Source: an uncultured virus (IMG/VR IMGVR_UViG_3300009194_000004) | Lineage: Duplodnaviria > Heunggongvirae > Uroviricota > Caudoviricetes | IMG/VR virus record: IMGVR_UViG_3300009194_000004 | Span: 62,001 to 126,000 of that record | DNA: 64,000 nt | Strand: one strand, 5' to 3' | Part shown: positions 21,162 through 55,586 of the stretch, one piece after another | Layout of the letters: every line of letters starts with the position of its first letter | How positions within the stretch are numbered: the first letter of the stretch is position 1 | Notes under the pieces: generated by a model | Seen by the model: the letters and a program-made list of their open reading frames with translations, nothing else | What the model was told of the DNA's origin: nothing | Database searches by the model: none | Translations under genes and position numbers: made by a program

Positions 21162-21167
21162 GTAACT

Positions 21168-22526: not shown

Positions 22527-22537
22527 GGAAACCCATC

Positions 22538-29900: not shown

Positions 29901-31547
29901 GTCGACGTGTTCGGTAACGCTAGGCAGTTGGAGGACGTCTTCGTACGCACCTTTGACCTTAATACCGGTTCCAGTGTCGCCTTTGTCGCCCTTATCGCCT
30001 TTGTCACCCTTATCGCCCTTGTCCCCTTTGGGACCTTCAAAGCGACCCACATCAACCCATTCATTGTTCATGAAGATGTACAGGTGATCTTGCACCACGT
30101 ATGCGGTGTACGGCGCTACGTCGGTGGGCAGTGGTTGCGCTTGCGGGTCAACGATGTAACCGGAGATCTCCAGACTGCGACCCATGGGACCCTGTGGACC
30201 CATGGGACCTTCCGGACCCCGCATTTTCTCGTTCCATTCCTCCACCGAGGTCACCAGACCCAGTTCAATGGCGGTTTCGTAGGAGTTCTTACCCTTCAGC
30301 GATTCGAGCCACGCTTCTTCGTTTTCAATCTCGTTACCGAAATCGAATTCTTTGGCGATCTCGTAAGCGCTCTTACCTTGCAGAGAGGCAATCCAGGCTT
30401 CCTCGTCCCCATCGAACAGGTAGTTGTTGATGGCAACCTCGTAGGCACTCAGCCCTTCCGGACCTTGTTCTCCGGGAATACCGCGTGGGCCTTGCAGGCC
30501 TTGCTCGCCCTGTGGACCGACGATCTCACCCAGGTCTTCAAACCGGTCACCGGTGAACACCCAAAGGTTTTTCTGGATGAAGTACGCATCACCCGGCTCG
30601 TTGTTACCTTGTGGGAGGTCCCCGTAAGAAACCACCTTCCCCAAAACTTTGATGGCGTTGGCGGGCTCGCCCTTATCGCCCCGCAGACCACGAGGGCCCT
30701 GCGGGCCTTCCGGACCCACCAGTGAGGCCAGGTAGTCCTCTTCAGTGCCCACAAAGCCATTTTCAACGGCCATCTCGTAAACGCTTTTACCTTGCAGCGA
30801 TACGAGGTAGTCTTCCATCGTCCAGTCGCTGGGGATGAGTTCGAACTCCCGAGCCAGTTGGTAAGCGCTCTGACCTTTGAGTCCTTCAAGGTACTGATTG
30901 ATTGTTGTACCTTCTTCGATTTGACCGGTCAATTTGGCCAAGTCGTAGGCACTCTTACCCGCAGGGCCGACTTGACCGACCTCGGCCCATTTCACGGTAT
31001 CCCAAACATACATCTTCCGATCGATGATGTACGCATGGCCACGTACGGGCTCAACAAAGTCCAGCATTTCCAGGCTCGGCAACGATCCCCGGATGTTGAT
31101 ACCGATGCCGTCAGACCCTTTCAGGCTTTCTTTCCATTCGTCGTACGTGCCGGTAAAACCGTCTCGGGTTACCGCCAGCTCATAGGCGTTCTTGCCACTT
31201 TCGCCTCGGAATGAACCCAGGTTTTCCCACCGTTCACCAATCAGCGTGTAGTAGTGAGTGTCAATGACGTACGTGTCACCTGTGGCGTGTTCCCAGGCTT
31301 CCGGGAGGTTGTCCGGTGTCGACAGTGTTCCGACAATCACGATGCCGCTGTCAATGAGCTGGTCAACGCCTTCAATACTACCGCCGCTACCGGACTTGAT
31401 GACGGACCCACCGGGGGTTTGACCGTCGTGAATACGCAGCTGTTTGAGCTCCGTATCAATGGTCACTTCCCCATCGTAACCAACGTAGCCGTCGTTATCG
31501 GCCGTTGTACCACGAGGGAAACGGTACCTTCTTTCTTGCTGTTGCAT
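26961..31547 (-). CDS. Large collagen-like tail fibre
   Basis: 1528 aa; N-terminal RGTT...GEVTIDT...IHDG.TPGG (Mtd-N-like) anchor; many Gly-X-Y runs; repeated G.SAYE and GDAY...WDG..W modules; C-terminal adaptor-like domain. Confidence 0.85.
29672..29744 (-). repeat. Imperfect 9-bp coding tandem repeat (Gly-Arg-Asn)n
   Basis: ccattacga/ccgttacga/ccattacgg units encoding [25 protein letters not shown]. Confidence 0.7.
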
Positions 31548-41440: not shown

Positions 41441-41710
41441 TCATAAGATATGGCATTGTAAGGACCGACTATGCGGAAATACTGGCGGATCAATGATCCG
41501 CCAGAGATCAGTCAAAGTGAACATCGCCGTCATCAATTCTTCATGGATTCGGTAGAGTTCGGGTGTTCCCCAGTATTTTAGAGGAAGATTGTTTTTGTCG
41601 TTGAGTTTATTGGACACGAGCAGACACTCAGTCACGGCTTGTTCCAAGTCACACTCACTGCTTAGGTCGTGGATTTCAATGTGCGTAGGTCATAAGGCTT
41701 CTTTGCTCAT
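41441..41710 (-). pseudogene. Small ORF interrupted by one in-frame TGA (pseudogene or readthrough)
   Basis: ATG 41710 overlaps the upstream stop (ATGA) and has an AGGAG RBS; reads MSKEAL*PTHIEIHDLSSECDLEQAVTEC...; TGA at 41692-41690. Confidence 0.45.
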
Positions 41711-42126
41711 ATCTCTCCTAACTCCTCTTTACAATAGCCGATGATAACCGAGTACAGTACTGTTGCTTTGAAGGAAGTGGTCAGAACCGCCGGTATCAGA
41801 GTATCGTAGACGACCGCCGTTTCTTCGTTGTAAGGTGTGAAATGGTCGTCGTCGTGGAGTAGTTGCGGGTGAGATAAAACCGAATAAAAGTTATTGTCGT
41901 ATTGTTTTGAAATATAATCGGCGTAACAAATCGCCACGATGTAGCTCTTCGCCGGGAACTCCAACGCTTCGACGTCACCATTGATCATGTTCAACGCACT
42001 GACAATCACATTGGGGTTATACGATCCCCCAAAGTAATCGGTTTTATTGCCTTCCCGATGAAAGCGTCTAAGACGGTCTAGCCAACCACCATTCAATGAG
42101 TGATTTGTACCCACTGCATTCGCCAT
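41707..42126 (-). CDS. Hypothetical protein of the radical SAM island
   Basis: FPAKSYIVAICYA...LLHDDDHF.PY; overlaps the upstream rSAM gene; start uncertain. Confidence 0.75.
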   Translation of the reverse strand: MANAVGTNHSLNGGWLDRLRRFHREGNKTDYFGGSYNPNVIVSALNMINGDVEALEFPAKSYIVAICYADYISKQYDNNFYSVLSHPQLLHDDDHFTPYNEETAVVYDTLIPAVLTTSFKATVLYSVIIGYCKEELGEI

Positions 42127-42967
42127 CCAATCCTTCCTTTCGTCGATAGTGTTCTGTCAAACATGTACCCTTAAACTCACACGAGCGACACACATCCGAA
42201 AGCAGGGTGTGTTTTTCTTTTTGGGTCCATTCAAGGTACGCATTGAAATCCGGGAGTTCCAGGAAAAACTCCCGATCGGCGTCGTCGAACTCCAAGACCC
42301 CAAAATTGCCATTTGGAGTGATGTAGACATGGTCGTCCGAGAACGCGTTACGGACACCGTCAGCGACGTCGTTCAATAATGCTGTGTTACGTAGCTGGCT
42401 GTTTGGAAAACCCATTACCCAGCGTTTCACGTACTCTACAAAGGCATTGTTTGTATTACCTCGATCATTGGCCTGATTGGGACTGTAAGGTTTGATTTCC
42501 ACCGAGTTCAAGTTCGCTAACGACCGGATCAATTCGATTTGCTGATCGACGTCACCGGCCATCACTTCCGGCGTGGCCAAAACAATGACGTTTATCGGAC
42601 GTGAAAACACCAACATGTTTGTGAAAACTTGTTCATGGTGGGGCCGGTGGTCAAAGTCATACGAGACGTTGACGTCGATATCGTCGTCGTATAGCCATTC
42701 CGACATTTGGTAGAAATTGGTGGTTATGGAAATGGGACCATCGTAATATCGCCGAACGACCCCCTTTAGATCATGGACGTACGTCTGATCCAACAGGGTC
42801 ACTTCACCACCATAAATCTCAACGGCTTCAATTTCGGGGAGTTCCGAGAGACGATGGTCCAGGTGTGTCAAATCCAACACGCGTCGAGACCGGAGCTGGT
42901 CTTCGGTTAAATAACAGTTCGCACATCGGAAATTACATCGGTACAAAGGGTTTATCGATACGATCAT
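42068..42967 (-). CDS. Radical SAM enzyme with C-terminal Cys cluster
   Basis: CNFRCANC, YGGE, C-terminal CRSCEFKGTC...C. Confidence 0.9.
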   Translation of the reverse strand: MIVSINPLYRCNFRCANCYLTEDQLRSRRVLDLTHLDHRLSELPEIEAVEIYGGEVTLLDQTYVHDLKGVVRRYYDGPISITTNFYQMSEWLYDDDIDVNVSYDFDHRPHHEQVFTNMLVFSRPINVIVLATPEVMAGDVDQQIELIRSLANLNSVEIKPYSPNQANDRGNTNNAFVEYVKRWVMGFPNSQLRNTALLNDVADGVRNAFSDDHVYITPNGNFGVLEFDDADREFFLELPDFNAYLEWTQKEKHTLLSDVCRSCEFKGTCLTEHYRRKEGLDGECSGYKSLIEWWLARPS

Positions 42968-42989
42968 TTAACACCCCATGATAGAGAGG

Positions 42990-43580
42990 TTAGTAACCTG
43001 TGGGGTGACCAAAGAACAGATCGCATGCTATCGACATACGCATAACCCCAGGACTGGGTTTTACGTAGTGTCCCAGATAACTTGGGAACACGTAAACCGT
43101 ATCGGCTTCGGGCGTTATTTGGTAGTTGGCAAAGTGGTTTTTCGTTATGTCCCACTCATAACCACGACCGGCACAACCACGTGGGTCGACGAGAACCAGA
43201 TTCCCTGGATTGGGAATCAGATAGAAAACAGCACTCACTTGAGCCCCGTTATGCACGTGCAGATCAAGACCGTCATTATTCTGACTATAAATACACCACA
43301 TGCTGGTTCTATAGTCTTTGTCGTTCAGCGTAATGCCGAACTCTTCTTGAACGTAACGGAGCAATGCGGGTAGTATAACGTCGTCGTGCAGTTTGCTCAA
43401 CGTAGGCCGTTCGGCGGGGTCGTATAAGTCAACCCTACTACCATACGCATTGTTATTGCTGTCCTCGTTGATCCCCATGGAAAATATCTCGCCGATGGCG
43501 ACGTCTATATCCACATCGTGATCCTCGATGTGGTCTTTGTGGATCACGGTTTTCCAAGGTTCTATGCGCTCGTATGCCAT
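42990..43580 (-). CDS. 2OG-Fe(II) oxygenase (TIGR02466-like)
   Basis: HVH...SAVFYL...LVDPR...FPSYLGHYV...RMSIA. Confidence 0.85.
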   Translation of the reverse strand: MAYERIEPWKTVIHKDHIEDHDVDIDVAIGEIFSMGINEDSNNNAYGSRVDLYDPAERPTLSKLHDDVILPALLRYVQEEFGITLNDKDYRTSMWCIYSQNNDGLDLHVHNGAQVSAVFYLIPNPGNLVLVDPRGCAGRGYEWDITKNHFANYQITPEADTVYVFPSYLGHYVKPSPGVMRMSIACDLFFGHPTGY

Positions 43581-43589
43581 TGTCGTCCC

Positions 43590-44282
43590 CTATGGGTTTT
43601 TGAACGTGGGGTCGCCTGGAAGTAGGTACTGTTTTATTTTGATCACTTCCAACGTGGATGCATCAAACAGACAACCAAACGCCCGTTTCTTTCGTGTGGT
43701 ATCACCGTCATTCGGTGGCGCAACATTAAAAAAGGTACCTATTTCCTTCCCAGTCAGGTCGGTGTAAAAATAGATGTCCCGGAAACGAAGTAATCGTTCA
43801 TCGTTTAAATGTAAACCTACACCGAAATAGTCGATTGGTACACACCCAGGCGGTAGCCGTGGGTATTGATGTCGTGCGATGTTGAGGTCGTACACCTTTA
43901 ATGCTTTTTGTTGCGTCTCCAATTGTAGCTTTAACGTGTAGGACGTACCTTGAACAAAACCCTCGGGTAGCTCACAATCAAACAATGGGGCGACCTGAGC
44001 AACGTCACACCGACGGTACGATATCGAAATAGTGTCTTCGGGGTAGTTGGTATTGTTTTTGCGGGTAAGGCCGATCAACTCCCAATTCTTCAATTCCGGC
44101 CACGGACTGGCTAAGATTTCAGGACTGTGTTCGATAGCCATATTGAACAAGGGTAGTACCGGTTCTGATAACACGGGGAAGTTGGGACGGTAGGTATTCT
44201 CGGACAACCCATTGGAATCAAGGGTGATTTCCTTTGCAGTCGGGTCGACCCCATCGATGTTAGTCAAAGAAACATTAGACAT
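43590..44282 (-). CDS. Hypothetical protein of the radical SAM island
   Basis: 230-aa ORF overlapping the upstream rSAM stop. Confidence 0.75.
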   Translation of the reverse strand: MSNVSLTNIDGVDPTAKEITLDSNGLSENTYRPNFPVLSEPVLPLFNMAIEHSPEILASPWPELKNWELIGLTRKNNTNYPEDTISISYRRCDVAQVAPLFDCELPEGFVQGTSYTLKLQLETQQKALKVYDLNIARHQYPRLPPGCVPIDYFGVGLHLNDERLLRFRDIYFYTDLTGKEIGTFFNVAPPNDGDTTRKKRAFGCLFDASTLEVIKIKQYLLPGDPTFKNP

Positions 44283-45309
44283 TTCTTACCTCAATCAAAT
44301 CGACAATACCAACTTCACTAGCTTGATTCAGTTCCGCTTCCAACGCTTTCATCTTACTGCAATGTTCGTCAACCCGACAACTTTCCTGTGTATCCATGAT
44401 CGTTTTCCGACATCCGTTACACAAACTGAAGAGTGAACATCCCCAACAGTCGTCATGCATGGACAGGTATAACATCGAATCCTGAAGAGGTGTGGTGATT
44501 GCGTCACTGGCCATCTCATTTTCAAAATCAATCGGAAACATGTCATCGTCACCAAATGCACCACAACTGTAATACGACCCGTCGGGATGTAGGTTACGAA
44601 TTCCTTTATCGCAGTCACGACTTATGGGACATGTCGTCTTAAGTCCGCCCAAGGAACGTATGAACTGCTGTGTGTTGTATTCCCATGGAGTCAACCCCGC
44701 CTTATGTATTTCGAGGTATTTGGCGTAAATGTCCCCCATCAAATAAGAAATACTTTGACGCCCGCTGGCGAATGCCCAATTAAGCTTACACACTACGCCC
44801 ATTTTTTTGGCCAGTCTGACATTATCCAAGGCGCGTTGAACGTTACTCTCGTCTATCACTGAGATGAAATCTGGACGGTACCCGACCCGCTCTAAGAACA
44901 GGTCACTGACTGCCCAAAAGTCCTCTTCTAAAAACACCCGTGTACGAGTAATTAATCGACTGTCACCGTAATGGAAGGACGTCCCCACCCCGATTTGTGG
45001 GTGGCGAAACAGCTCAGTCCATTTGTCGGGCCGCTTATAAAAGTCCCACAAGTTGGTCGTGAAGCTGACAATGGTTTCGGTCATGCCGCGTTCTTCCAAC
45101 AGCTTGAGGATATCCCAATAATAGTCGGGCCTGAGCATCAACGGATCACCACCGTTAACAATGATCGTTTGGGTGTTCGGAAACCGATCCAGAAAGCGAG
45201 CAATATAGTCCAGATTGAGAACGTCTTTCTTATCGTCGGTTATGTTGGTGGAGCTGCAGAACGTGCAGGCGAAGTTACAAAGTTCCGTTGGTTTGATGAT
45301 CAGATCCAC
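44275..45309 (-). CDS. Radical SAM/SPASM enzyme
   Basis: IIKPTELCNFACTFC, GGDP, C.....C...PDG.YYSC, CWGCSLFSLCNGC; GTG start with AGGAG RBS. Confidence 0.9.
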   Translation of the reverse strand: MDLIIKPTELCNFACTFCSSTNITDDKKDVLNLDYIARFLDRFPNTQTIIVNGGDPLMLRPDYYWDILKLLEERGMTETIVSFTTNLWDFYKRPDKWTELFRHPQIGVGTSFHYGDSRLITRTRVFLEEDFWAVSDLFLERVGYRPDFISVIDESNVQRALDNVRLAKKMGVVCKLNWAFASGRQSISYLMGDIYAKYLEIHKAGLTPWEYNTQQFIRSLGGLKTTCPISRDCDKGIRNLHPDGSYYSCGAFGDDDMFPIDFENEMASDAITTPLQDSMLYLSMHDDCWGCSLFSLCNGCRKTIMDTQESCRVDEHCSKMKALEAELNQASEVGIVDLIEVRNV

Positions 45310-45374
45310 GGGTAAACTCCTGTTCGGTATTGGATGACTATATAGTTAGACGTCGGCGTTGAAAACAACCACAC

Positions 45375-45416
45375 ACAGCATAAAACCACGGCCTCAGGTA
45401 CCGTGGTTTTATGTCA
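45375..45416. terminator. Terminator-like dispersed palindrome inside the rSAM island
   Basis: CATAAAACCACGG-cctcaggta-CCGTGGTTTTATG. Confidence 0.75.
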
Positions 45417-46397
45417 CCATTGGTTTACTTTGGCGATTGTTTCCTTCGGTAAAACACACTCGGTGATTCCATAATCTTCCATGATTGACAACACGCGATG
45501 GTCCAGACACGTCGGCAGAAACGGACACTCGCCACACTCTTTCGTTTTGGTGGTGTAAGCGTACTGTTCTAAGATGACGGCGTCGTACTTCTTACGATAG
45601 TCCTCTACCCCGTCAACCCGGTACCGGTCACGGATTTGTATCAAATCTTCGTAAACGATGGGGATGGCGTAAAACTCATTCTCATAAAAAATGATTACGC
45701 GTTCTAGTTTGTCGTGCGGACTCACCACATCGACGTGTTGGTCGACCATACAGCCGTCGTTAGTCGCCTGAGTGGTGACGGTCACAGATTTTAACCAGTT
45801 AAACGCGCGCCGGTACTGTTCTGGATCGTTACTGGTTCGAGCAAACGACAGATTAAAGTCCACACCTTGACCGTACTGTCTGAGGTAAAAGTTGTTCAAC
45901 GTTTCGTAGTTATCGACTACCAACGACTGACTCAAATTCAACTGTGGGTGCAGGTACAGGTTCGGGAACCGGGCTTTGACGTCCCGAACCTTCTCGGCAA
46001 TGACCGCATTGTAGCGTTCGTTCAGGTTCTTCGATTCCGGAATGACCACGTTGATCTGAAGTTCCTTCATACCAAGACGATCAAGGGCGTTCAATACCTG
46101 TAAGTCGGGTTTCACCATGGTGGAGTTGACAACCAGTCGATCAAACCTTTTGATTAATTCAGTCAACCGAATGTCATTCAGGATCTCCATCGTGTTGGTG
46201 GCGGTGAAGATATCGGTACTACCCAAAACGACCGCATATGGGTCGAGGTGTTCTAGGAACTCATAGGCCACGCGGTACATCTTATCCGTAGCTTTATTGG
46301 GGGAATCACGATCAACATGGCAACCCGCGCAATTGAATGCACAACCCGCTAAGATCTCCAACTGCAGTTCGAATGAGTTGAATTTTTCGATGTTCAC
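45414..46397 (-). CDS. Divergent radical SAM-fold protein
   Basis: CAFNCAGC and C-terminal CGECPFLPTC...C; the GGE motif appears replaced by LGST. Confidence 0.8.
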   Translation of the reverse strand: MNIEKFNSFELQLEILAGCAFNCAGCHVDRDSPNKATDKMYRVAYEFLEHLDPYAVVLGSTDIFTATNTMEILNDIRLTELIKRFDRLVVNSTMVKPDLQVLNALDRLGMKELQINVVIPESKNLNERYNAVIAEKVRDVKARFPNLYLHPQLNLSQSLVVDNYETLNNFYLRQYGQGVDFNLSFARTSNDPEQYRRAFNWLKSVTVTTQATNDGCMVDQHVDVVSPHDKLERVIIFYENEFYAIPIVYEDLIQIRDRYRVDGVEDYRKKYDAVILEQYAYTTKTKECGECPFLPTCLDHRVLSIMEDYGITECVLPKETIAKVNQW

Positions 46398-47398
46398 GAA
46401 ATCACTCCATAGAGTCGTTTAAACTCACAATGTTTGTTTGTGATGTTCACGTGGTCACTGTGTAGAAAACAACCCAACCCGCAACGCTGATAAAACTCAC
46501 AACTCAGGCACTCGCGTTCTTGAATGAACCGGACCTCGGACTCATGGATGTTGTCAACAACAGTCGGGTCCGATTTGAACTGGTCCCGATCGGCCAAAAT
46601 CCGACAAGAGCCCGTATGTCCTGTCGGAAGAATGATGAACGAACTCCGACAGGTCGCTGTGTTGTGGTGATTCTCACGAAACCCTTTGACTGGTTGACAT
46701 TCCGGATAGTGTTTATCCAACCACAGGAAAAAGTCAACCAGTTCAACATCACTGGGCTGTAAAATTTCAGCGTTATCTTCGGGTGAATAATAGTCAAAGA
46801 AAATCGGGTAGTCCTGGTAAAGTCGATCAAACACGACGTTGGAACCACGCATGAATCGTTCAATGTTAGGTCGGGTCAACACCACGGAAATGTTTGACAG
46901 CCAGGGTTTGAACTTGGCCAGGTTTTCCTCAAACAGTTTAAGCGTCTGAGAGTTAAACCGACCCGCAGCATCGTAAGACGTGCAAAAGGTGAACGGAATC
47001 AGCAGTTCTTCCAATGTCTTGATGAACCGCATCACCCGCTCGGCCTTCTCGAACACTAAGTTGGTCACGAAATTGATTTCACAGTGTTTAACTGATGTCA
47101 CTACCCGATGACAGAACTCTACATAGTCGTCGAATACTCGATCGGGGAGTTCGTCCATGAACAACTCCCCACCCATGACGTTCACACTGTAAAAATCGTG
47201 ATCGTTGGTGTTATTAATGACAACGCTTGCTTTCTCAACAATCTCATCAACACCAGTCCAGTCGCTGTGGTCCTGCCAACAAAACCCACAGCTAAGGTTG
47301 CAGCGCTCAAAGAAGTTGATGAAAAATTCTTTATTCTGTCCCCGCTTTGCTTCCACTATCTCCACCAGCGGTATCAGGTCCGGGTTGTTCGTGGCCAT
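46394..47398 (-). CDS. Radical SAM/SPASM enzyme
   Basis: CNLSCGFC, MGGE, C-terminal CLSCEFYQRCGLGC...C. Confidence 0.9.
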   Translation of the reverse strand: MATNNPDLIPLVEIVEAKRGQNKEFFINFFERCNLSCGFCWQDHSDWTGVDEIVEKASVVINNTNDHDFYSVNVMGGELFMDELPDRVFDDYVEFCHRVVTSVKHCEINFVTNLVFEKAERVMRFIKTLEELLIPFTFCTSYDAAGRFNSQTLKLFEENLAKFKPWLSNISVVLTRPNIERFMRGSNVVFDRLYQDYPIFFDYYSPEDNAEILQPSDVELVDFFLWLDKHYPECQPVKGFRENHHNTATCRSSFIILPTGHTGSCRILADRDQFKSDPTVVDNIHESEVRFIQERECLSCEFYQRCGLGCFLHSDHVNITNKHCEFKRLYGVIS

Positions 47399-48083
47399 TG
47401 AGTATCTCCAAAGCGTATTTGTTTAAAAGCAACCAGTTGGGGTTTTCTTTATCCCCAACGAAGAAGTGAAACAGGTTCTTTCCGTTGAACATGTATTCTT
47501 CAAACTGGACAGGGAAATAAAACTGCCGGTAGTCCACCGCATCTCGGATAGAGAAAAACAACTCGAAGAACGAAGGAATCTCAAACAGCCAGACAACGTT
47601 AACACCGATATATTTCGGGTCGTTAATAACACCGTCATATCCCCGGAGATCTGGGTCTTTGTCATCGTCTATTGCTTTGATGTAGTCACAGTACTTGACC
47701 ATCGAAGAGCAGAACAAGAAATACCGGGCCAGCAGGTCGGAGTGTTCTTCAACAAATTCATCTAAGAATCCATCTGGGGTTTCGAATGTAGCGATCCCAG
47801 AGGTGTCCCCCTCCATGAAATGGATCAGTACCAACAACACAAGAACGTTGAGTTCTTCACACTTAAAGAGTGTGTTGATTTCCATGTAAACACTGAGTAA
47901 TTCTGAGAGTTCTTCTTTTGACAACGTCTCCACGTTGATCCGTGTTTTGACGTTCAGGTTTGCCAGGTAAAACACAAAGGGTTTCCCCTTTATTTTCGAA
48001 TTACTGTAATCGACAGTATACACTTTGTCGTTTTCGGCAATGACGTTGTGTAGGTCACTGATGGGGAGTGGTACGGTAATCAT
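47331..48083 (-). CDS. Hypothetical protein of the radical SAM island
   Basis: 250 aa; GAGG RBS; 68-nt overlap with the next rSAM gene. Confidence 0.8.
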   Translation of the reverse strand: MITVPLPISDLHNVIAENDKVYTVDYSNSKIKGKPFVFYLANLNVKTRINVETLSKEELSELLSVYMEINTLFKCEELNVLVLLVLIHFMEGDTSGIATFETPDGFLDEFVEEHSDLLARYFLFCSSMVKYCDYIKAIDDDKDPDLRGYDGVINDPKYIGVNVVWLFEIPSFFELFFSIRDAVDYRQFYFPVQFEEYMFNGKNLFHFFVGDKENPNWLLLNKYALEILNGHEQPGPDTAGGDSGSKAGTE

Positions 48084-48093
48084 GACGTTTGCC

Positions 48094-49128
48094 TCATCCG
48101 TTCAGATTCATTTGTTTCAACACGTCTCGGTCTGCGTGGTACAAGTACCCGATGAAATTGTTATTCATGTTATCCCGAAATTCCGTGCGACCAAAAATTT
48201 GACTACAGTGGGTATTTATATCCATGTTGACCAGGTCTCTGGCTTTCGTTACCGTGAACGAACCCTCAGGAAGAACCCTGAGTAGGTGGTTCAGGAATGG
48301 ATCGGTGGTTCCATTCTTCGCATGGACTTTTTCGACAAGCTCACGTATTTCCTTGTGGTGCCTTTTAATAAACGCCACATTCCCTGGGTGGTTATCTGGA
48401 TTGAACAGCACTGTGTCCTCCAGTGCTTCGATCTGGTCGTCGATATCGTCCCGTTCCAAGTCAATATCAAACCCAAAGTTTTGCTTTAGGTTGTAGATCC
48501 CATATAACAAGTCACGTCGCACGCCCACGAAGTCCCATGCCACTGATTTCCAGAGGATTGTTTCCATGCGCTCTACGAACGCGGATACGTAGCGATCAGA
48601 TGGGTCAAAATCAACCAAGAGAACATGCGCCAGTAAGTATTCAAAACTGATACGCTCTTTCAGTTCGGCTGGGACGGGGCGCGGTTCTACTTCCTCATAC
48701 CAAGCCCTTACAGCATCCAGGGTGGGGATTGTGATGTTTCGAAAACCGTCTTTTCGCGAACCTTTGGTACTGGTGCGACTTCCATGCTCGTACTTGTGGT
48801 TCACCGCATTCAGTTTCAAGAATCGATGTACCATCTCCACACTTGCCAGTGGGAATAAGGATCGCAGCCAGACCACCAAAAAGTAATTCAGGGAACGCTC
48901 GTCTATTAAAATGGTGGTCTTTTGTCCGATAGGCGTCAGGCATTCAACAAATGTGAATAGGTCACCAAAGTCTCTCTCGATTGCGTCGACCGACACAAAC
49001 TGATACAATGGCCTAGGGCCATGCGTTACACGACACTGTCCAAGTGGTCCTACATAGACCAAGTTGTTGCGACCTACATTTCCAGTGAAATCGTAATCAA
49101 TATAAACCTTATCCAACAAATGTAACAT
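48094..49128 (-). CDS. Hypothetical protein, paralog C of a tandem triplet
   Basis: MLHLLDKVYIDYDF; ISFEYLLAH; ME.ILW; FGR...N..FIGYLY. Confidence 0.85.
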   Translation of the reverse strand: MLHLLDKVYIDYDFTGNVGRNNLVYVGPLGQCRVTHGPRPLYQFVSVDAIERDFGDLFTFVECLTPIGQKTTILIDERSLNYFLVVWLRSLFPLASVEMVHRFLKLNAVNHKYEHGSRTSTKGSRKDGFRNITIPTLDAVRAWYEEVEPRPVPAELKERISFEYLLAHVLLVDFDPSDRYVSAFVERMETILWKSVAWDFVGVRRDLLYGIYNLKQNFGFDIDLERDDIDDQIEALEDTVLFNPDNHPGNVAFIKRHHKEIRELVEKVHAKNGTTDPFLNHLLRVLPEGSFTVTKARDLVNMDINTHCSQIFGRTEFRDNMNNNFIGYLYHADRDVLKQMNLNG

Positions 49129-49150
49129 TATTTTTTTTACCTGCCGTCAG

Positions 49151-50188
49151 TCAGCCGTTCATTTTGAAATACTTCAAGGTCTCCGGCGTCAGATTGTAAA
49201 GATAATTAACAAAGACGCCGTTCGTGTCTTTGGTCATCTTCTCTCGACCAAAAAGAAAAGACCAGAGTGATTCTCTGTCGACAGCCACCAGTTCTTTCAG
49301 AACACTCCCGGTGAATGGTCGTTCCGGGTCTAAAAGGTCAAACAAGAAACGCCGATACTGGTCACCGTACCCAAGAAGCTCATCCACTTTATCCATCATC
49401 TTTCTGATGTACGCGTAATCCGCTTTGACGACATCCACGTCTTTATAGGTTATTGCCGGGTCGAAAAACCGCTTAACCTCAGGCTGATTAAGTTGGTACT
49501 CGATATCATTTCGATCAAAATTAATCGGCAGACCAAGTGTTTTCTTCAACCTAAACCCATTGTAGAAAGCCGCCATTCGACGCTTAACAAAATCCCTAGC
49601 GCAGGATATCCACAACATGTGTTCAATTTTCTTAGAAAGTTGATCTACATGCGGGTCAGCGTCGTCAAAATCCACACTTAAGGAGTGAGCCAAGAGTGTT
49701 TCATAGCTCAGGTGTTTTTTGAGTTCCGAACAATACCCACTACCATGTTTCGAACCCGCGTAAAAGCGTTTCGTGTCGTCCAGTGTTGGAGCCGGAAGCT
49801 GGTCAGCGTAATGATCGTAAGCAAACCCCCTAACTCGAACAAAACGATGGTGTATGTAGAAGGTCCTCAGGATTGCGTGGATGATTTCCACCGGCATCTC
49901 AGGATACACCGCTCGATAGTGGGTCACCACTAGCTGGTACATGTCGTCAATGTCCAACATTAACCACACGTCGCCTTCAGTAAGAATCAATGTTTCCATG
50001 AATGTAGGTAGGTCGCCAAAAGCATCCAACGCTTCTTCGAGGTTGGTGAATTCCATGAGTCCTTCGGGATGGAATTCATTTTGAGTATGCGTACGGTCGT
50101 CCAGATAAATGTACGAGTCGGTTGGTTGTTTCAGGTCAACGCTCGTAAATGCAAAGTCCGCCCGGACGTCATCAATTAAGTGCAGCAT
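49151..50188 (-). CDS. Hypothetical protein, paralog B of a tandem triplet
   Basis: MLHLIDDVRADFAF; LSYETLLAH; IEHMLW; FGR...FVNYLY; AAGGA RBS before ATG 50188. Confidence 0.85.
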   Translation of the reverse strand: MLHLIDDVRADFAFTSVDLKQPTDSYIYLDDRTHTQNEFHPEGLMEFTNLEEALDAFGDLPTFMETLILTEGDVWLMLDIDDMYQLVVTHYRAVYPEMPVEIIHAILRTFYIHHRFVRVRGFAYDHYADQLPAPTLDDTKRFYAGSKHGSGYCSELKKHLSYETLLAHSLSVDFDDADPHVDQLSKKIEHMLWISCARDFVKRRMAAFYNGFRLKKTLGLPINFDRNDIEYQLNQPEVKRFFDPAITYKDVDVVKADYAYIRKMMDKVDELLGYGDQYRRFLFDLLDPERPFTGSVLKELVAVDRESLWSFLFGREKMTKDTNGVFVNYLYNLTPETLKYFKMNG

Positions 50189-50190
50189 GG

Positions 50191-51240
50191 TTATGTTTCC
50201 TTTGTTGGGGACAGGACCATATCTGAAATCTTTACAGGCGTGACTGAATGCAGGTAACTGAATATAAGGGAGCCTGTTCCCCATAATGCATCGTCGATAC
50301 CGAAGAATGCACTCCACGGACGCTTCCGGTCGGCGTCAATCAGCTCGATGAATTCGTCGTGTGTGATCTCATGGTCCTTCAAGAAGAAGCTAACGGCGAG
50401 CTCCTTGAAGTCCTCTACAATGTTATTGCGTTTGTTGTTAACGCTAATAGCGTGGTGGATTTTCTGGGCGTTAGCTGCAGTTATCTCATTAAGTGATTCA
50501 TCAAACCCCAGCGCTTCATCCAGCTTTGAGATTTGTTCCTCGATGTCGTCCGCCAGCGGATCGATATCTAGGTCTAGGTTTTTCTTTAGACCGAAGATTC
50601 CTAATAACAGCCTACGGCGCCATGTGGTGTAGTCAGTCACCAACATTTGCCACAACAACGCTTCCATCCGTCGTCTAAAACAGATGACATAAGGATCTGA
50701 CTCAGAATAGTTACACGCATGTGCGTGAACCATAAGGTATTCAATAGAAACGTTCTCTTTTACCAAATCGGAGAACTCACCATTTACTCCCGCCTCTTCG
50801 TACCAAATGCGCGTCTGCATTGGTGTCGGGACTGTAAGTCCGAGTCTACCCTCACGATTAATGCTCGCGCGGGTGGAAAGGCGAATCTGGCTGTATTTTT
50901 GGTCGATCGTCACCATTCTCAAGAACCGATGTGTGTTCTCAAGCGTGATGTTTGGAAAAATACCACGCAAGAAATGAACGTAAAAACGGTTTAGATCTTG
51001 CTCGTCGATGAACGCCGTGACATCACGACCACTGTGAATAATGGATTCGATGAATCCATTTATACCACCAGGGGCGTCTATAAGCACATCAAGATTGGGG
51101 TACTTCATCAGCGGAGTTGCGTCTTGAGAAAAAGCCTTAGACCCGAGGGAGTTAATATAAACAATATCTTTCGGGTTGGCCCTAGCGTTCGGACTGGAAA
51201 ATGAGTAATCAAGCGACAGGCCGTTTGTCAACCGGATCAT
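50191..51240 (-). CDS. Hypothetical protein, paralog A of a tandem triplet
   Basis: MIRLTNGLSLDYSF; VSIEYLMVH; MEALLW; IFSYLH; ATGA-coupled to the putative precursor gene. Confidence 0.85.
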   Translation of the reverse strand: MIRLTNGLSLDYSFSSPNARANPKDIVYINSLGSKAFSQDATPLMKYPNLDVLIDAPGGINGFIESIIHSGRDVTAFIDEQDLNRFYVHFLRGIFPNITLENTHRFLRMVTIDQKYSQIRLSTRASINREGRLGLTVPTPMQTRIWYEEAGVNGEFSDLVKENVSIEYLMVHAHACNYSESDPYVICFRRRMEALLWQMLVTDYTTWRRRLLLGIFGLKKNLDLDIDPLADDIEEQISKLDEALGFDESLNEITAANAQKIHHAISVNNKRNNIVEDFKELAVSFFLKDHEITHDEFIELIDADRKRPWSAFFGIDDALWGTGSLIFSYLHSVTPVKISDMVLSPTKET

Positions 51241-51779
51241 CGTCTGCTCCTTGAACCGTGGCAGTTGCTGTGGCAGTTCGAATGACAGACTGACAGATCC
51301 ACGATCTCACCGTTGTGAATGCGTTCATATAACTCGTTCTGAACTGTTTGGATCAGGTCGGATAGATTTGACCGATCAGCATCGTTTCGAGTGGAAATGT
51401 AGGTCGGGTCACCACCGGCGGTTTTCAAGCTGTGTATGCTCTGGCGGTAATTATTGTTCAGTGCTGCAATACCCCACTCTTTATCGTGATCGCCGTTTGT
51501 GTAATTACTGCCAGAATAATGACGCGCGGTGTAAACCTTGCGCATTGAAGTACAACGTTCCGCTTCGGCTTTGATCACGTCAACAACGTTACTTGCATCG
51601 ACATCTCCGGTGTTTGCATCAGTACCCCTATCAAAATGAGACAGTTCCACCAGCGGACTTTGGTCCATGTACTTGTCGTCCCGGGCAGAACCCTTCCACC
51701 ATTTCGCTTGGTCCTTGGCGTACTGGTTGATGTTGTTATTGACAGCCGCGTGAAAATCACTCCGTTTTAAATCAGCCAT
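51237..51779 (-). CDS. Putative substrate/precursor protein with C-terminal CHSNCHSNCHGSRSRR
   Basis: 180 aa; starts 2 nt after the first rSAM/SPASM stop; repetitive Cys/His C-terminal core. The CDS is solid; the substrate role is inferred. Confidence 0.75.
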   Translation of the reverse strand: MADLKRSDFHAAVNNNINQYAKDQAKWWKGSARDDKYMDQSPLVELSHFDRGTDANTGDVDASNVVDVIKAEAERCTSMRKVYTARHYSGSNYTNGDHDKEWGIAALNNNYRQSIHSLKTAGGDPTYISTRNDADRSNLSDLIQTVQNELYERIHNGEIVDLSVCHSNCHSNCHGSRSRR

Positions 51780-51780
51780 G

Positions 51781-52917
51781 TTAGAATACCTCTACAACTG
51801 GGATCGTTTTTGTATCCGAAGTCAGCGCGGACGGCTCTTTCTCATACCGAATGCCTTCCTCACCCATGAACCCATTGAGTACTTCCTTCAGGATGTCCTG
51901 ATCGGTGTTTTTCATGGACCGCATCATGGACTTTGGAGAAGCACAGATATCGCCCTGCCAATTAAGTTGATGACAATCGCCATTACAAACGTCAAATACG
52001 TCACAACTGAAACAGACTTCGTTCAGGGTGCTTTCGGTTGCAATGTTACATCCACGTCCTTCCGAGAACACGATATCTGAAATGGTTTGATCCAAGGTTC
52101 CGAACGTCGTCTCAGGGGCGCCATTGGGACACCCGCCAATGGTACCATCGGCGTTCAGGGTTAGAATCTTCTGTTCGCATTCCCGACTACGGCACCCGGA
52201 AAACGTATTGAATACAGTGCTGGTCAGCAGGCTTTCTAGGAACATGTTCAAGATCTTTTCGTACGCCTTGTGTTCCAACGTCTGTTCCCACATTTTCAAG
52301 AACCACGCGTCCAACTCCAGATTGGTAGGAAAAATACCGGTGTTCTCACGGGCGTTACCATTCTCAGTGATGCGTTCAAAGTTGATGAACGCAACCCCAA
52401 GGTTGGTCATCTTGTTGATCAAGTCGATTGGCTCAACATCCATCAGGTCTTTGGACACGCAAATCATGACCGTGACGTCTATGCCTTCGGCCACTAACTT
52501 ACGGACGTTTTCTTCCCACAGCGCTTCTTGGTTGCGGTTCCCTTGCCAACGGATGCTGTAATCCCAGGATGTCCCGATTGAAGTTCCTGCCACTTTCTTC
52601 AGAAACGCCAGTCGGTCATCTGTCAGCTTATACGTCAGGTTGGTTTGAATACCCCATGTCAAGTTATCCCAGAGTCCATCCAGCTCATCGTAAACCTTTT
52701 CCATTTTGTCCAGCGGGCAGAGCATCGGCTCGCCACCATGGAACGAGATGTTGGCGGAACGGAAGGTGGGGAACTGAGCTTTCAGTCGGTGAAAGAAGTC
52801 AATGGTGGCATCCGGGTCAAACCAACCCTTCTTCCCGTTGGTACCACTTGTGAAACAGTGCTGGCAGTTTAACTGGCAAGTTTCGGTAGTTTTCAGGTAG
52901 ACCATTAAATCACGCAT
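51781..52917 (-). CDS. Radical SAM/SPASM peptide-maturase-like enzyme
   Basis: YLKTTETCQLNCQHC, FHGGEP, CRSREC...ADGTIGGCPN, CFSCDVFDVCNGDC...C; GAGG RBS before ATG 52917. Confidence 0.9.
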   Translation of the reverse strand: MRDLMVYLKTTETCQLNCQHCFTSGTNGKKGWFDPDATIDFFHRLKAQFPTFRSANISFHGGEPMLCPLDKMEKVYDELDGLWDNLTWGIQTNLTYKLTDDRLAFLKKVAGTSIGTSWDYSIRWQGNRNQEALWEENVRKLVAEGIDVTVMICVSKDLMDVEPIDLINKMTNLGVAFINFERITENGNARENTGIFPTNLELDAWFLKMWEQTLEHKAYEKILNMFLESLLTSTVFNTFSGCRSRECEQKILTLNADGTIGGCPNGAPETTFGTLDQTISDIVFSEGRGCNIATESTLNEVCFSCDVFDVCNGDCHQLNWQGDICASPKSMMRSMKNTDQDILKEVLNGFMGEEGIRYEKEPSALTSDTKTIPVVEVF

Positions 52918-52993
52918 GGTACGTCCTCGTTTATTTCTAATGAATGTCGCTACTGTACAATCATGACCATAAGTAAAAAAAGCAGCAGTGGGC

Positions 52994-53923
52994 TTACACC
53001 CACTGTGCCGGCCAAACGACCTTCCAACCACCGTTGACGTAGGCTTGCAGTTGATTGTTACGGACCCGCAGACTGGTCTCGTCTGTAGAACCAATTCGCA
53101 CGTAACGCCCGTCGTGGTGATTCACGTTCGGGTTAGCGTGGGTGGCAAGTGCGACACCCACGGCGTGTGGTGACATGTACCGGGTTTTGGTGGACATGTC
53201 CGCCGCCTGGGTATCCGTGGCCATTTTGTAGTTTTCGACGTCCCCCAGTCCCACCTGGGCCTTAGTAACCTTGTGTGGGTTGGTGCCGTCTTCCATGTGG
53301 TCGACCAAGCGGTTCTCGACTCGGTTTCGATCTTCGGCTGCTTCTTCAAACAACATCAACGCGTAGGCACGCGTTTCATCGTGAAGTGCTTGGTCACCAG
53401 CCATGATCGCCTGAACAATCCGTTCCAGTTCGGTGACAACCGGCTCAAACCCATACAGTTCCCACAAGGCGTGCAGGTGGCCAGCCGCTGGGTACTCGTT
53501 AGGCTTGCCGATGATGTTGGCCCACTCCACGGGCCGATCTTCTTCAGCCAGTGTGTCGATCACCTGCTGGAGTGCGTCGGTTGAAACTGCAAAGTCTCCA
53601 CCCACTACCTGGTAATCCAGGAACACACTGGTCGAAACATTGGGGTTAACAACGATGATCGCCCCACAGACTTCCAGACCGCTTCGGGTCGTGGCCCGTT
53701 CGTACAGGTAAGTGGCGATATAATCATCGCCCTTACGAAGCTCTGCACCTGACACATCCCGGAGGACCATGTCGCGGGTGTAGAACCCGCCGTAATTGGG
53801 AACCAAGACCCGGTAGTTACCGGTGGTCACGGCGGCGTCCAGATCGTGTCGCTCGCCCAGGATGCGGTTATCCGGATTCCGGCCCGTCAAATCCAACGGG
53901 TATTTGTTAACAATGAGTGACAT
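52994..53923 (-). CDS. Virion structural protein (short paralog of 53940..55586)
   Basis: YPLDLTGRNPDNRI.GE; one H..NPHKVTKAQVGL..VEN fibre repeat. Confidence 0.75.
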   Translation of the reverse strand: MSLIVNKYPLDLTGRNPDNRILGERHDLDAAVTTGNYRVLVPNYGGFYTRDMVLRDVSGAELRKGDDYIATYLYERATTRSGLEVCGAIIVVNPNVSTSVFLDYQVVGGDFAVSTDALQQVIDTLAEEDRPVEWANIIGKPNEYPAAGHLHALWELYGFEPVVTELERIVQAIMAGDQALHDETRAYALMLFEEAAEDRNRVENRLVDHMEDGTNPHKVTKAQVGLGDVENYKMATDTQAADMSTKTRYMSPHAVGVALATHANPNVNHHDGRYVRIGSTDETSLRVRNNQLQAYVNGGWKVVWPAQWV

Positions 53924-53939: not shown

Positions 53940-55586
53940 TTAGGCTTCAAGTTGGGCGGACGCGTCATCGAATGCCGCAATCAGGGTGTCCGTGACGTCT
54001 TGGGCACCGGCACCGACGGTGGGAATCGGTGTCCGACCACTTCCACGGGTTGGGTAGTACAGACCAGGATCGGGCAGGAACTGACCTGTCGGTTGACGCA
54101 CTGGGATGAATGTAATTCCTTCAGCGGGAACGTTGGTCACATCCAGTGACAGTTCCATGACCCGCTCAGCGCCGGTACCGGTGATACCCAACATGAAATC
54201 CCGCATGGGCGGGATGCCGTTCAGTGTGGTTATGTTTACCGTTTCGTTTGTCCAGTCGGCTTCAATACTAACCCACGCTTTACGTCCATCGGGTCCTGGT
54301 ACGCTACCAAGCATGTGAAGGGGTTCGTCGGTTTCACTGAGGTGATAAAACGGCAGATGTTCATCGCGTCCGAAACTGTCTCCAGAGGTGAAGTCCCAGG
54401 TATACGTTGCGAAATACACAAATTGCGTGTACATGTCGTCCTTGATGTCACCATACGTCATGTTCTCCAGCATTTGGGAGTTAGCAGCCGTGCCCAACAG
54501 GATGTCCTGTTTCAACCCTTCGAGGGTCATCCCAAATGTCCGGTCGGTGTCGTAAGCGGTACCATCGACCCGGAGGTAATTCTGCAAGATACCGTTGATG
54601 GTATCCATGCTGATTGCGCCGATATCCGCAGCGGTAATTCCGTGGGGGTTATTGGTGTCACTGAAATGCGGTTCCAGAACCTCGTCCTTGAGGGCTTGGA
54701 TGACCACCTCTACCAGATACGGGGTCATGTACCGGTCGTTACGGGTCCCGTCATACGCTTCGCCCGGTGTGGCGATTCCGAAGTTCTGTACTAGCGAAAG
54801 ACCTACGTCGGCTTTATCAGTACCGTGGGGGTTGTCGGCGTTCAGGTGTTCGTCAATTTCCCGTTGTACAGCTGCCCCTACAGCAACGTCCGTCGACTTC
54901 GGTGACATATAACGGTCACTGCGGAGTCCTTCGGCTGCCTCGGTCTCGTTGGCCATCGGGAAGTTTTGTACGTACTCCAGCCCCACCTGTTTCTTGGTGA
55001 CCATGTGAGGGTTGTCCCGACTGTTCATGTGGTCGGTTACAGTCCCCGCTTCCGTATCACCCAGTGCACGATTGATATCACCGATGGCTTCAACCACTTC
55101 TTCGAAACCGATCAGTTCACCGGTGCCCTGATCGTGTGGGATCGGTGGGAACAACGCCGGGAGTGTGTCAATCTGACTCCATGCGCGAGTCAATGGGTTG
55201 ACAGCTTTATTCGACAGCTCTTCCAATACGGCTTGATCTGAGAAGCCCCAGTGACCCCCGATGGTTTGGTAGGTCATGGACACAATACCACCGATATCGC
55301 GACTCAGGAAGCGCAGAGAACCTGCCAGAGCCTTACCGGTGTTGTTGGAGCCTTCGGGGAAATAGTGACCAAAGAGAAAGTCACGTCCTTCCTTATACAG
55401 ACGACCAGTTGCTTGGTCACGGATCTCAAACGACTCCACGTAAAACGGAGCCGCCTGAGGGATGATGAAATAATAGTCATCCCGGCCAGGGACCTGCAGG
55501 GTCTGCAACTCCCCATCGATTTTGTTTGCCGGGTTGGTACCGTACGGGTCGAACTCGTACAGTCCCGTGGTGTTTACAGTAGCCAT
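53940..55586 (-). CDS. Virion structural / tail-fibre-associated protein
   Basis: YEFDPYGTNPANKI.GE; three H...NPH...VGL/IG repeats; AAGGAG RBS. Confidence 0.75.
   Translation of the reverse strand: MATVNTTGLYEFDPYGTNPANKIDGELQTLQVPGRDDYYFIIPQAAPFYVESFEIRDQATGRLYKEGRDFLFGHYFPEGSNNTGKALAGSLRFLSRDIGGIVSMTYQTIGGHWGFSDQAVLEELSNKAVNPLTRAWSQIDTLPALFPPIPHDQGTGELIGFEEVVEAIGDINRALGDTEAGTVTDHMNSRDNPHMVTKKQVGLEYVQNFPMANETEAAEGLRSDRYMSPKSTDVAVGAAVQREIDEHLNADNPHGTDKADVGLSLVQNFGIATPGEAYDGTRNDRYMTPYLVEVVIQALKDEVLEPHFSDTNNPHGITAADIGAISMDTINGILQNYLRVDGTAYDTDRTFGMTLEGLKQDILLGTAANSQMLENMTYGDIKDDMYTQFVYFATYTWDFTSGDSFGRDEHLPFYHLSETDEPLHMLGSVPGPDGRKAWVSIEADWTNETVNITTLNGIPPMRDFMLGITGTGAERVMELSLDVTNVPAEGITFIPVRQPTGQFLPDPGLYYPTRGSGRTPIPTVGAGAQDVTDTLIAAFDDASAQLEA

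Follow-up and report, generated by a model that had tools for sequence, protein, structure and literature searches.

Enzymes of the radical S-adenosylmethionine (rSAM) superfamily are known to mature small peptides and a few enzymes. Next to the His crosslinks of triceptides, Cys thioethers are the other common product of those members that carry a SPASM domain. In FxSxx-COOH/FxsB and mycofactocin (MftA/MftC) the modified residues lie at or near a conserved C-terminus, and in QhpC/QhpD it is QhpD that introduces several Cys crosslinks into a protein subunit that remains in a larger assembly; to our knowledge, none of these is linked to phages or virions and none involves a Cys-His repeat. Two described systems come closer to the locus treated here. 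In the HXS antiphage system (HxsA/B/C/D), two rSAM enzymes and a small helper are described as maturing a full-size protein via His-Xaa-Ser repeats; at the cell envelope the product works as a protein and not as a free peptide, and a +8 Da change is reported on one repeat (Li et al., Nat Commun 2026, PMC13128918). The triceptide synthases HaaB, YhhB and HtkB form proven crosslinks between His-C2 and the C-beta of the residue two positions on, in the motifs HAA, HNR and HTK, respectively (PMC11499958). Here we compare with these systems an island of 13 genes in a 64,000-nucleotide stretch of viral DNA (positions 62,001 to 126,000 of IMG/VR record IMGVR_UViG_3300009194_000004; the whole stretch is hereafter the window). 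The island occupies 41707-52917 on the minus strand and encodes five rSAM enzymes (rSAM A to E), a 2-oxoglutarate (2OG)-Fe(II) oxygenase, three paralogs and four proteins of no known family, one of which, a 180-residue protein encoded directly after rSAM A, ends in a Cys/His-rich tail.

Judged from sequence comparison, the island and its relatives probably form a widespread multi-gene system that matures the C-terminal tail of the 180-residue protein, with crosslinking as the most likely chemistry by analogy. The protein ends in CHSNCHSNCHGSRSRR (CHSN-CHSN-CHGS-RSRR), so that its last 16 residues follow the pattern (C-H-x-S/N)x3-R-x-R-R-COOH. The gene after rSAM A ends in C-H-x-x-C-H-x-x-C-H-x-[S/A]-R-x-R-R-stop in 10 of the 11 loci first found via rSAM A, the eleventh being a truncated contig, and the remainder of the protein varies over a length range of 170-364 amino acids (aa). 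Across a 74-sequence alignment with a mean column identity of 18%, C165, H166, C169, H170, C173, H174, R177, R179 and R180 are invariant; outside the tail, R80 alone is nearly so. A profile search of 1.84 billion representatives returned 897 family members at E<=1e-3 and 702 at E<=1e-10, most of the 897 being 170-230 aa long and matched end to end. Among the best 149 of the 897, the strict motif stands at the very C-terminus in 136, and, two positions on from the first, second and third His, Ser stands in 126, 105 and 122 of these, with Asn second; this predominance of Ser gives the family consensus (C-H-x-S)x3-R-G-R-R-COOH. The residues ahead of the first Cys in the same set are mostly Thr/Asp/Ser/Asn, then Val/Ile, and a few of its members have a Gly inserted ahead of the final R-x-R-R or have lost the end. 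Four C-H-x-x repeats, not three, occur in the tail open reading frames (ORFs) of loci L034, L044, L164 and L172. Strict HxS identity of the window tail can be ruled out, with Asn at two of the three X3 positions; Ser dominates in the wider family.

When the tails were removed, 116 of 126 unique tail proteins still formed one phmmer similarity cluster, which argues that the N-terminal part is a conserved folded domain and not a throw-away leader; it has no match in Pfam, NCBIfam or PDB sequences. Within the island, the alignments mark the 180-residue ORF as the only element with an invariant, enzyme-linked motif, and they favour the choice of 51237..51779 as the protein to examine, already made in an earlier reading of the bare sequence (the original prediction).

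The link between tail and enzymes emerged from loci retrieved by a degenerate DNA pattern for the tail plus stop codon, independently of enzyme homology. The chance expectation of this pattern is about 1e-13 per position by our own estimate, assuming even base composition. Viral contigs hold at least 123 stretches with the pattern; among the matches listed, a tail ORF was called in 115 of 123 viral loci, and island rSAM families lie nearby in all 80 viral loci with fetched flanks. Genome contigs gave 47 stretches, 37 of them true C-terminal tail genes, and cassette rSAM enzymes stand beside 36 of the 37, the sole exception being a locus that ends at the gene. The remaining 10 genome stretches are internal matches or cut loci, and L177 among them still shows cassette families. 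Full loci, in which the tail gene has 9 kb or more on each side, numbered 40 viral (among the matches listed) and 19 genome; three loci duplicating the same contigs (L063, L083 and L088) had been dropped. In viral and genome full loci, respectively, rSAM B is found in 40/40 and 19/19, rSAM E in 39/40 and 17/19, rSAM A in 37/40 and 19/19, rSAM D in 37/40 and 17/19, hyp250 in 35/40 and 18/19, hyp139 in 32/40 and 18/19, the oxygenase in 24/40 and 2/19, rSAM C in 15/40 and 10/19, the paralog family in 7/40 and 5/19, and hyp230 in 3/40 and 7/19. Over all full loci combined, rSAM B is present in 59/59, A in 56, E in 56 and D in 54. The core consists of rSAM A, the tail protein, hyp250, rSAM B, D and E, and hyp139; rSAM C, the oxygenase, hyp230 and the three paralogs are accessory. 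The original prediction had named a lack of co-occurrence in homologous loci as evidence against it, and we find the genes together in roughly 100 loci retrieved by the tail.

Viral loci carry three to seven rSAM genes (mode four) and genome loci two to seven, and the commonest gene order is rSAM A, tail protein, hyp250, rSAM B. In a second architecture, a tandem pair of tail proteins of 124-140 aa is followed by up to five rSAM C copies, with rSAM B, hyp139, rSAM E and rSAM D on the opposite strand. Together with the locus counts, it identifies the window as the core plus the accessories rSAM C, oxygenase, hyp230 and three paralogs. The second architecture with four or five rSAM C-type copies was seen in the viral loci L012, L037, L045, L046, L050, L066, L078, L086, L089 and L091, with collagen-like fibre genes ahead of it in L037 and L066; tblastn of the phage collection found no isolated phage with its tail type. 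Relatives also contain insertions in or beside the cassette, a dihydrofolate reductase in RSL2 (ORF073, L002 18030-18566) and a homing endonuclease in RSF1 (L054 6917-7834), which indicates that the module tolerates unrelated genes.

From 52917 downwards the order in the window is rSAM A, tail protein, paralogs 1-3, hyp250, rSAM B, rSAM C, a hairpin, rSAM D, hyp230, oxygenase, rSAM E and hyp139. With the upstream context, the features are:

53940..55586, minus strand: TF1, fibre-like virion protein, 548 aa, upstream context (phrog_13857 'tail protein' 1e-118; phrog_2163 2e-82)
52994..53923, minus strand: TF2, fibre-like virion protein, 309 aa (phrog_2163 1e-96; blastp against TF1 2.5e-28)
52986..53005, minus strand: terminator-like hairpin and T-run between TF2 and rSAM A (consensus scan, 8-pair stem)
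51781..52917, minus strand: rSAM A, radical-SAM/SPASM, 378 aa, core, directly upstream of the tail protein (PF04055 30.2 bits)
51237..51779, minus strand: tail protein, 180 aa, predicted substrate, no Pfam family (invariant C-terminal Cys/His/Arg)
51240..51287, minus strand: C-terminal tail, residues 165-180, CHSN-CHSN-CHGS-RSRR-COOH (sequence reading)
50191..51240, minus strand: paralog 1, 349 aa, accessory, no known family (blastp to paralogs 2 and 3: 4e-29, 6e-47)
49151..50188, minus strand: paralog 2, 345 aa, accessory (true start is the ATG at 50188)
48094..49128, minus strand: paralog 3, 344 aa, accessory (blastp paralogy)
47331..48083, minus strand: hyp250, core, after the tail protein in most loci (phrog_20767 2e-41)
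46394..47398, minus strand: rSAM B, radical-SAM/SPASM, 334 aa, most universal core gene (CX3CX2C at residue 33, CX2CX5CX3C at 297)
45414..46397, minus strand: rSAM C, divergent radical-SAM, 327 aa, accessory, one auxiliary-cluster motif (PF04055 22.8 bits, below cut-off; phrog_31457)
45382..45410, minus strand: 10-bp hairpin between rSAM C and rSAM D (direct sequence reading)
44275..45309, minus strand: rSAM D, radical-SAM/SPASM-like, 344 aa, core (PF04055 38.6 bits)
43590..44282, minus strand: hyp230, 230 aa, accessory (no match in Pfam, PHROGs or NCBIfam)
42990..43580, minus strand: 2OG-Fe(II) oxygenase, 196 aa, accessory tailoring enzyme (PF13759 47.7 bits, cut-off 27; phrog_81)
42068..42967, minus strand: rSAM E, radical-SAM, 299 aa, core, one auxiliary-cluster motif (CX3CX2C at residue 11)
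41707..42126, minus strand: hyp139, small core protein, no family (phrog_20737 2e-16)

The original prediction counted 14 co-oriented ORFs, of which these 13 genes stand. The fourteenth, an 'interrupted ORF' at 41441-41647, starts with TTG, lies in a spacer of 396 nt and is best taken as part of that spacer; its reading as a decayed oxygenase is ruled out by the lack of any blastx match to ORFs of at least 80 aa in 80 related viral loci longer than 5 kb. The rest of the inventory agrees with ours, including the Cys/His tail, the hairpin between rSAM C and D and the oxygenase, whose PF13759 match spans residues 93-187. The three proteins of about 345 aa are truly paralogous (blastp E 4e-29 to 6e-47, identity 22-34%), and the rSAM C copy number in other loci is 0-5. 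Neither a protease nor a transporter was detected in the island by Pfam, PHROGs, NCBIfam or PADLOC, again as first noted. The same-strand structural flanks were also recovered, with the fibre-like phrog_13857/phrog_2163 proteins upstream (TF2 is, by sequence, a paralog of the TF1 N-terminus) and, downstream, a DUF7208 protein, a RuvC-like protein, a spanin and then virion proteins.

By their sequence motifs, all five enzymes fall in the radical SAM superfamily, each combining, as the original prediction stated, CX3CX2C within the first 40 residues with a C-terminal Cys cluster; in all four families that were aligned (A, B, C and E), the CX3CX2C Cys do not vary. Against the PF04055 cut-off of 29.5 bits, A (30.2) and D (38.6) score above and B (18.5), C (22.8) and E (21.2) below. 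The SPASM pattern (TIGR04085, seven Cys) is C-x(9-15)-G-x4-C ... C-x2-C-x5-C-x3-C ... C and specifies two auxiliary clusters. A and B have the full CX2CX5CX3C core with flanking Cys, D has the near-full CX2CX5CX2C, and C and E have only CX2CX5C and one further Cys, four-Cys ends that look like a twitch-like single cluster; TIGR04085 scores were 26.2, 21.3 and 19.2 bits, slightly under the cut-off of 27. In rSAM A, CX3CX2C at residue 14 and the seven-Cys SPASM pattern are invariant over 45 sequences, as are CX3CX2C and the SPASM Cys of rSAM B over 41. The same holds over 40 sequences each for C19, C23, C26, C288, C291, C297 and C314 of rSAM C, and for CX3CX2C with C260, C263, C269 and C284 of rSAM E.

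The original prediction had also named clustering with cofactor- or nucleotide-modifying families as an outcome that would speak against it. The rSAM A profile instead appears nearest to peptide- and protein-modifying SPASM enzymes, its solved relatives being ChlB (2.6e-9), the unnamed rSAM protein 8vpo, anSME (5.7e-8), CteB (1.7e-7) and, behind them, MoaA (2e-4). The ChlB match covers the N-terminal 100 residues, and the anSME structure aligns along the full profile (13-319 to 12-333). Among NCBIfam models, rSAM A scores best with anSME (65.8 bits; cut-off 349), DarE, CbpB, DynA, FxsB and YhhB. rSAM D weakly matches anSME (PDB 4k37, E 2.8e-4), and the best solved relative of the rSAM E profile is the peptide epimerase YydG (9e-9, core domain only), with viperins next. 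The rSAM B and C profiles gave no match to PDB sequences at E<=0.01.

On present sequence evidence the enzymes belong to no named family, with HXS and the His-triceptides as the nearest systems. HXS is the nearest in concept, and the likeness extends to the wider tail family with its Ser two after His. Membership, as far as the published description allows a comparison, fails on every tested feature. HXS is defined by HxsB, HxsC, HxsD and an HxsA with five HxS repeats and a peptidoglycan-binding domain; the cassette repeats have a period of four, an invariant Cys and an R-x-R-R end, are three in number and stand at the extreme C-terminus, and neither a peptidoglycan-binding domain nor a signal for N-terminal processing was detected. 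The HXS models score far below cut-off on the island enzymes (HxsB 26.9 bits vs 370; HxsC 26.9 vs 267.9), neither the tail protein nor the small proteins match NCBIfam or Pfam, and three to seven rSAM genes are carried in viral cassettes by phages, and by predators, rather than in antiphage defence. Triceptide synthases are characterised by substrates with aromatic-X-X motifs and by an aromatic-to-C-beta crosslink of -2 Da. The triceptide likeness lies in H-x-S/N, which occurs three times in the tail, and in the triceptide synthase ChlB as the best solved match of rSAM A. However, the 3-CyFE equivalog models (XyeB, GrrM/OscB, FxsB, YhhB and AmcB) gave only 19.6-36.8 bits against cut-offs of 310-450 (YhhB 33.5 vs 445, FxsB 36.8 vs 370, XyeB 19.6 vs 450, AmcB 32.7 vs 425), and triceptide substrates are short precursor peptides with one maturase, whereas the predicted substrate here is a folded virion protein served by several rSAM enzymes. 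anSME resembles the predicted system in being a SPASM enzyme that modifies Cys/Ser of a full-length folded protein, and its model (TIGR03942) is the best NCBIfam model for both rSAM A and D. The scores (65.8 and 42.2 bits vs 349) nevertheless lie far below cut-off, no sulfatase occurs in the island, and the tail lacks the C/S-x-P-x-R motif targeted by anSME. None of the FxsB, mycofactocin or QhpC/QhpD models in NCBIfam reached its cut-off on an island protein. The locus likewise departs from a classical RiPP (peptide that is ribosomally synthesized, then post-translationally modified) cluster in that the candidate precursor is 124-434 aa long with a conserved domain, no protease or transporter accompanies it, and an ortholog is retained in the virion according to the published virion table of one phage.

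That phage is Agrobacterium phage Atu_ph07, whose gp170 is the ortholog of the tail protein. In the virion mass spectrometry table (Table S5, PMC6102473), Gp 170 (31.89 kDa) is represented by 8 unique peptides that cover 35.16% of it. It was detected across gel bands 1-9 and peaks in band 1, the top band; the remaining entries with their peak there are one protein of 36 kDa and five of 76-139 kDa. The same virion table includes gp176 and gp177, encoded upstream, and omits gp171, gp168, gp165, gp169 and gp172 (PMC6102473); the cassette enzymes are thus absent from the list that contains their putative substrate. Masses computed from sequence agree with the table, at 31.89 kDa for the tail-bearing ORF of Atu_ph07, 66.07 kDa for gp176 and 21.66 kDa for gp177.

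Fibre genes adjoin the cassette in the window and elsewhere. TF1 and TF2 lie upstream, separated from it by the terminator-like hairpin, and TF1 homologs stand ahead of the cassette in phiKZ-like loci. Many viral loci have a fibre-like protein, then a 135-200-aa phrog_8014/4992 protein, then rSAM A (72 proteins, 33 loci). The last ~130 residues of that fibre-like protein match phrog_22593/19602/6427, the fibre C-terminus gave weak Peptidase_G2 intramolecular-chaperone matches in 5 of 18, and the small protein proved to be JmjC_2/Cupin_2 in 5/5 tested; the cupin gene is absent from the window. Peptidase_S74 proteins of 156-413 aa lie at most 4 kb from the cassette in 9 of 18 bacterial loci examined, and two of them have a prepilin N-methylation motif. 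These small proteins of the intramolecular-chaperone type (L139:15854-17041, L171:17582-18628 and seven other Bdellovibrionota loci), each adjoined, where checked, by an ORF of ~200 aa without family, may represent short fibres of another class than the ~1000-aa MAT fibres of Bdellovibrio bacteriovorus; S74-terminated fibres are described as the adhesin class this predator uses on prey (PMC10769870).

Taken together, the results suggest a model of how the cassette may operate. The substrate would be a 16-residue segment, (Cys-His-x-Ser/Asn)x3-Arg-x-Arg-Arg-COOH, at the C-terminal end of the protein whose gene directly follows rSAM A. In the infected cell, each radical-SAM enzyme would abstract a hydrogen atom from a tail residue and thereby install a covalent modification, with rSAM A, B, D and E as core actors and rSAM C as an extra. 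Likely products are intramolecular Cys thioethers and/or triceptide-type cyclophanes joining His-C2 to Ser/Asn-C-beta, possibly with epimerisation. The 2OG oxygenase may add an optional hydroxylation, and the JmjC/cupin protein may do likewise in relatives; an epimerase role for rSAM E and hydroxylation by the oxygenase are weaker guesses than crosslinking. The finished protein would not be exported as a peptide but built into the virion, probably with the tail-fibre apparatus, where a rigid, possibly metal-binding Cys/His knot could serve assembly or contact with the cell surface. We favour this model because, in a divergent family, nothing but the tail is invariant, because tail and enzymes co-occur in loci retrieved by the tail pattern alone, and because rSAM A and rSAM E are nearest to peptide/protein-modifying SPASM enzymes and YydG, respectively. 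The H-x-S/N units also match the triceptide motif aromatic-X-X, the Atu_ph07 virion list contains gp170 and not the enzymes, fibre genes neighbour the cassette, and the N-domain is conserved as a folded unit. The original prediction had left two branches, modification of a virion protein or a product released at lysis; the invariance of the tail, the virion ortholog, the co-occurrence and the SPASM affinity all favour the first.

Several points weigh against this model. The tail was designated as substrate by conservation and adjacency, and the paralogs, hyp250, the fibres or a small molecule are other candidate substrates. Three to seven rSAM enzymes seem to exceed the apparent need of three repeats in a 16-residue tail. 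The window tail is itself a minority form, with Asn in two of three repeats. None of the five enzymes reached the cut-off of a named NCBIfam family, three (B, C and E) fall under the Pfam cut-off, and no N-terminal domain resembling a RiPP recognition element is visible in rSAM A, in which CX3CX2C begins at residue 14. The AlphaFold2 (AF2) model of the 180-residue protein (16 sequences) was poor, with a predicted local distance difference test (pLDDT) score of 50.6, and was left out of the fold search. The virion evidence comes from one phage, Table S5 is silent on the C-terminal peptide of gp170, and the enrichment in band 1 could reflect aggregation or an SDS-stable trimer and not covalent chemistry. 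Complex prediction for rSAM A with the 180-residue protein (alignments A5, A1) gave 0.00 against a mark of 0.32, which speaks neither for nor against binding.

The excess of enzymes over repeats would be accommodated if the tail were a ligand and not a substrate, its three Cys and three His binding a metal or Fe-S cluster or forming a redox cofactor while the rSAM enzymes act on fibres, paralogs or a small molecule. With their period of four, the Cys/His residues would share one helix face, and phage fibre and spike tips often bind Fe or Zn via His motifs. We nevertheless consider this unlikely: the tail and the rSAM genes are strictly adjacent and co-occur, metal ligation alone does not explain the conserved Ser/Asn two after His or the terminal R-x-R-R, and the enzymes are not in the Atu_ph07 virion list.

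A second alternative is a released RiPP, in which the 180-residue protein is a long-leader precursor (cf. NHLP and Nif11 leaders) and the modified 16-residue peptide is cut off to act as a toxin, signal or metallophore at lysis. SPASM rSAM enzymes typically mature RiPPs, RiPP maturases are among the closest profiles, and the conserved segment lies at the C-terminus as in RiPP precursors. Yet neither a protease nor a transporter was detected in the island or among the families followed from locus to locus, the published table has gp170 as a virion protein with peptides covering 35% of it, and the N-domain is a conserved family in its own right. A Gly-Gly-type motif would be expected before a cleaved RiPP core, and none was seen ahead of the first Cys. 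We regard a released peptide as improbable.

That the rSAM enzymes modify DNA, nucleotides or a cofactor, or counter host defence, with the Cys/His protein incidental, is very improbable: weak superfamily-level matches to MoaA and viperin models and one homolog annotated moaA in RsoM3USA point that way, but the matches are limited to the cluster-binding N-terminus far below cut-offs (MoaA 28.6 bits vs 284), MoaA matches the rSAM A profile much more weakly than ChlB, anSME and CteB do, the cassette has no nucleotide-binding partner, and it lies among fibre genes and also on predator chromosomes. A defence or anti-defence role is likewise unsupported, PADLOC having given only N-terminal cluster-motif matches to pVip.

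Searches with the remaining proteins were negative. The AF2 model of hyp250 is confident (pLDDT 88.3), and Foldseek found no match to it in PDB at E<=1e-3, with a best Z of 3.5 in the VIA wide search. For hyp250, hyp139, the paralogs and the tail family, profile searches against PDB sequences returned no E value under 0.08, hhalign found no relation of hyp250 to the paralogs or of either to rSAM A, and Atlas searches with hyp139 and paralog 3 reached only the noise level (0.77-0.79).

The record is a 131-kb viral sequence with a CheckV completeness of 44%, and a 231.8-kb IMG/VR contig carries a locus with 100% identity to its rSAM A locus. PHROG content (a phrog_1037/phrog_2935 ORF run, internal head protein, baseplate and SbcC) and the synteny of the region with ORF064-081 of Ralstonia phage RSL2 place the window, on sequence grounds, in a phiKZ-like jumbo phage. 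The run comprises ~12 ORFs matching phrog_1037/phrog_2935 'virion structural protein', as phiKZ-like phages typically have, at 13763-23696 on the plus strand and 6996-8327 on the minus strand. A collagen-like tail-fibre gene of 1528 aa lies at 26961-31547 on the minus strand (phrog_3904, 2e-290), and the 908-aa ORF antisense to it (27999-30725, plus strand) is probably a shadow of the collagen-like repeats. G+C content falls to 0.46-0.48 over 42-52 kb of the window, the island, against 0.50-0.60 on both flanks, which fits acquisition of the cassette from elsewhere. The whole record contains exactly five PF04055 matches and one CH-repeat site, and since all lie within the island, the assembly is beyond chance.

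Isolated phages with an rSAM A homolog account for 15 records, namely Sinorhizobium phage Phosso, Agrobacterium phage Atu_ph07, the Ralstonia/Burkholderia RSL2 group and Pseudomonas phage pPa_SNUABM_DT01. As these carriers come from jumbo lineages that are not related to each other (phiKZ-like and Rak2/T4-like), transfer of the module is implied. Against the phage collection, megablast of the island gave no match, tblastn gave none for paralog 3 or two other tail-protein types, and tblastn with the tail did not retrieve ΦRP12 or ΦRP31. Of the 37 genomic tail genes, 26 are in records whose titles name Bdellovibrionota lineages, among them contigs of 1.3-2.8 Mb, and the three examined loci with housekeeping flanks (DinG-like helicase, LspA, LolA, SMC, serine dehydratase and Mrp) indicate that the cassette is chromosomal in these predators. 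Several other 'genome' matches resemble phage contigs binned into metagenome-assembled genomes (MAGs), with phage-type order and giant ORFs. The island was first called phage-encoded, which is correct for the window, but the system is not confined to phages. Tail genes with cassette rSAM genes were also seen in two Firmicutes-labelled records, L163 (Dysosmobacter segnis isolate contig, 4.3 kb) and L168 (Bacilli MAG, 249-kb contig), and given these the range may extend past Gram-negative hosts and predators.

A broader reading of the same data, which we put forward tentatively and consider possible rather than likely, is that jumbo phages and predatory Bdellovibrionota share a horizontally exchanged organelle-finishing system, in which several rSAM enzymes join up the Cys-His-x-Ser repeats of a small protein associated with fibres, giving a polycyclic C-terminal knot that binds metal and that both kinds of predator use as part of their machinery to grip or breach the Gram-negative envelope. 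The literature searched held no case of radical-SAM finishing of a virus-particle protein; phage papers list the cassette genes as annotations, with nothing further found in print, and the words 'radical' and 'SPASM' are absent from the text of a jumbo-phage comparative review. If this broader reading is true, it would be the first radical-SAM maturation of a virion structural protein, possibly with a new crosslink chemistry joining Cys and His in one motif. The cassette is large, with three to seven rSAM genes in viral loci, and common, with 897 family representatives and at least 123 viral stretches. It is common to giant phages of plant- and human-associated bacteria and to the chromosomes of predatory bacteria, near fibre genes in many. 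With a motif of 16 residues as the putative substrate, co-expression and mass spectrometry can test the chemistry directly, and the system may yield new crosslink types, a new principle for the assembly of virions or adhesins, and a handle on the host range of biocontrol jumbo phages.

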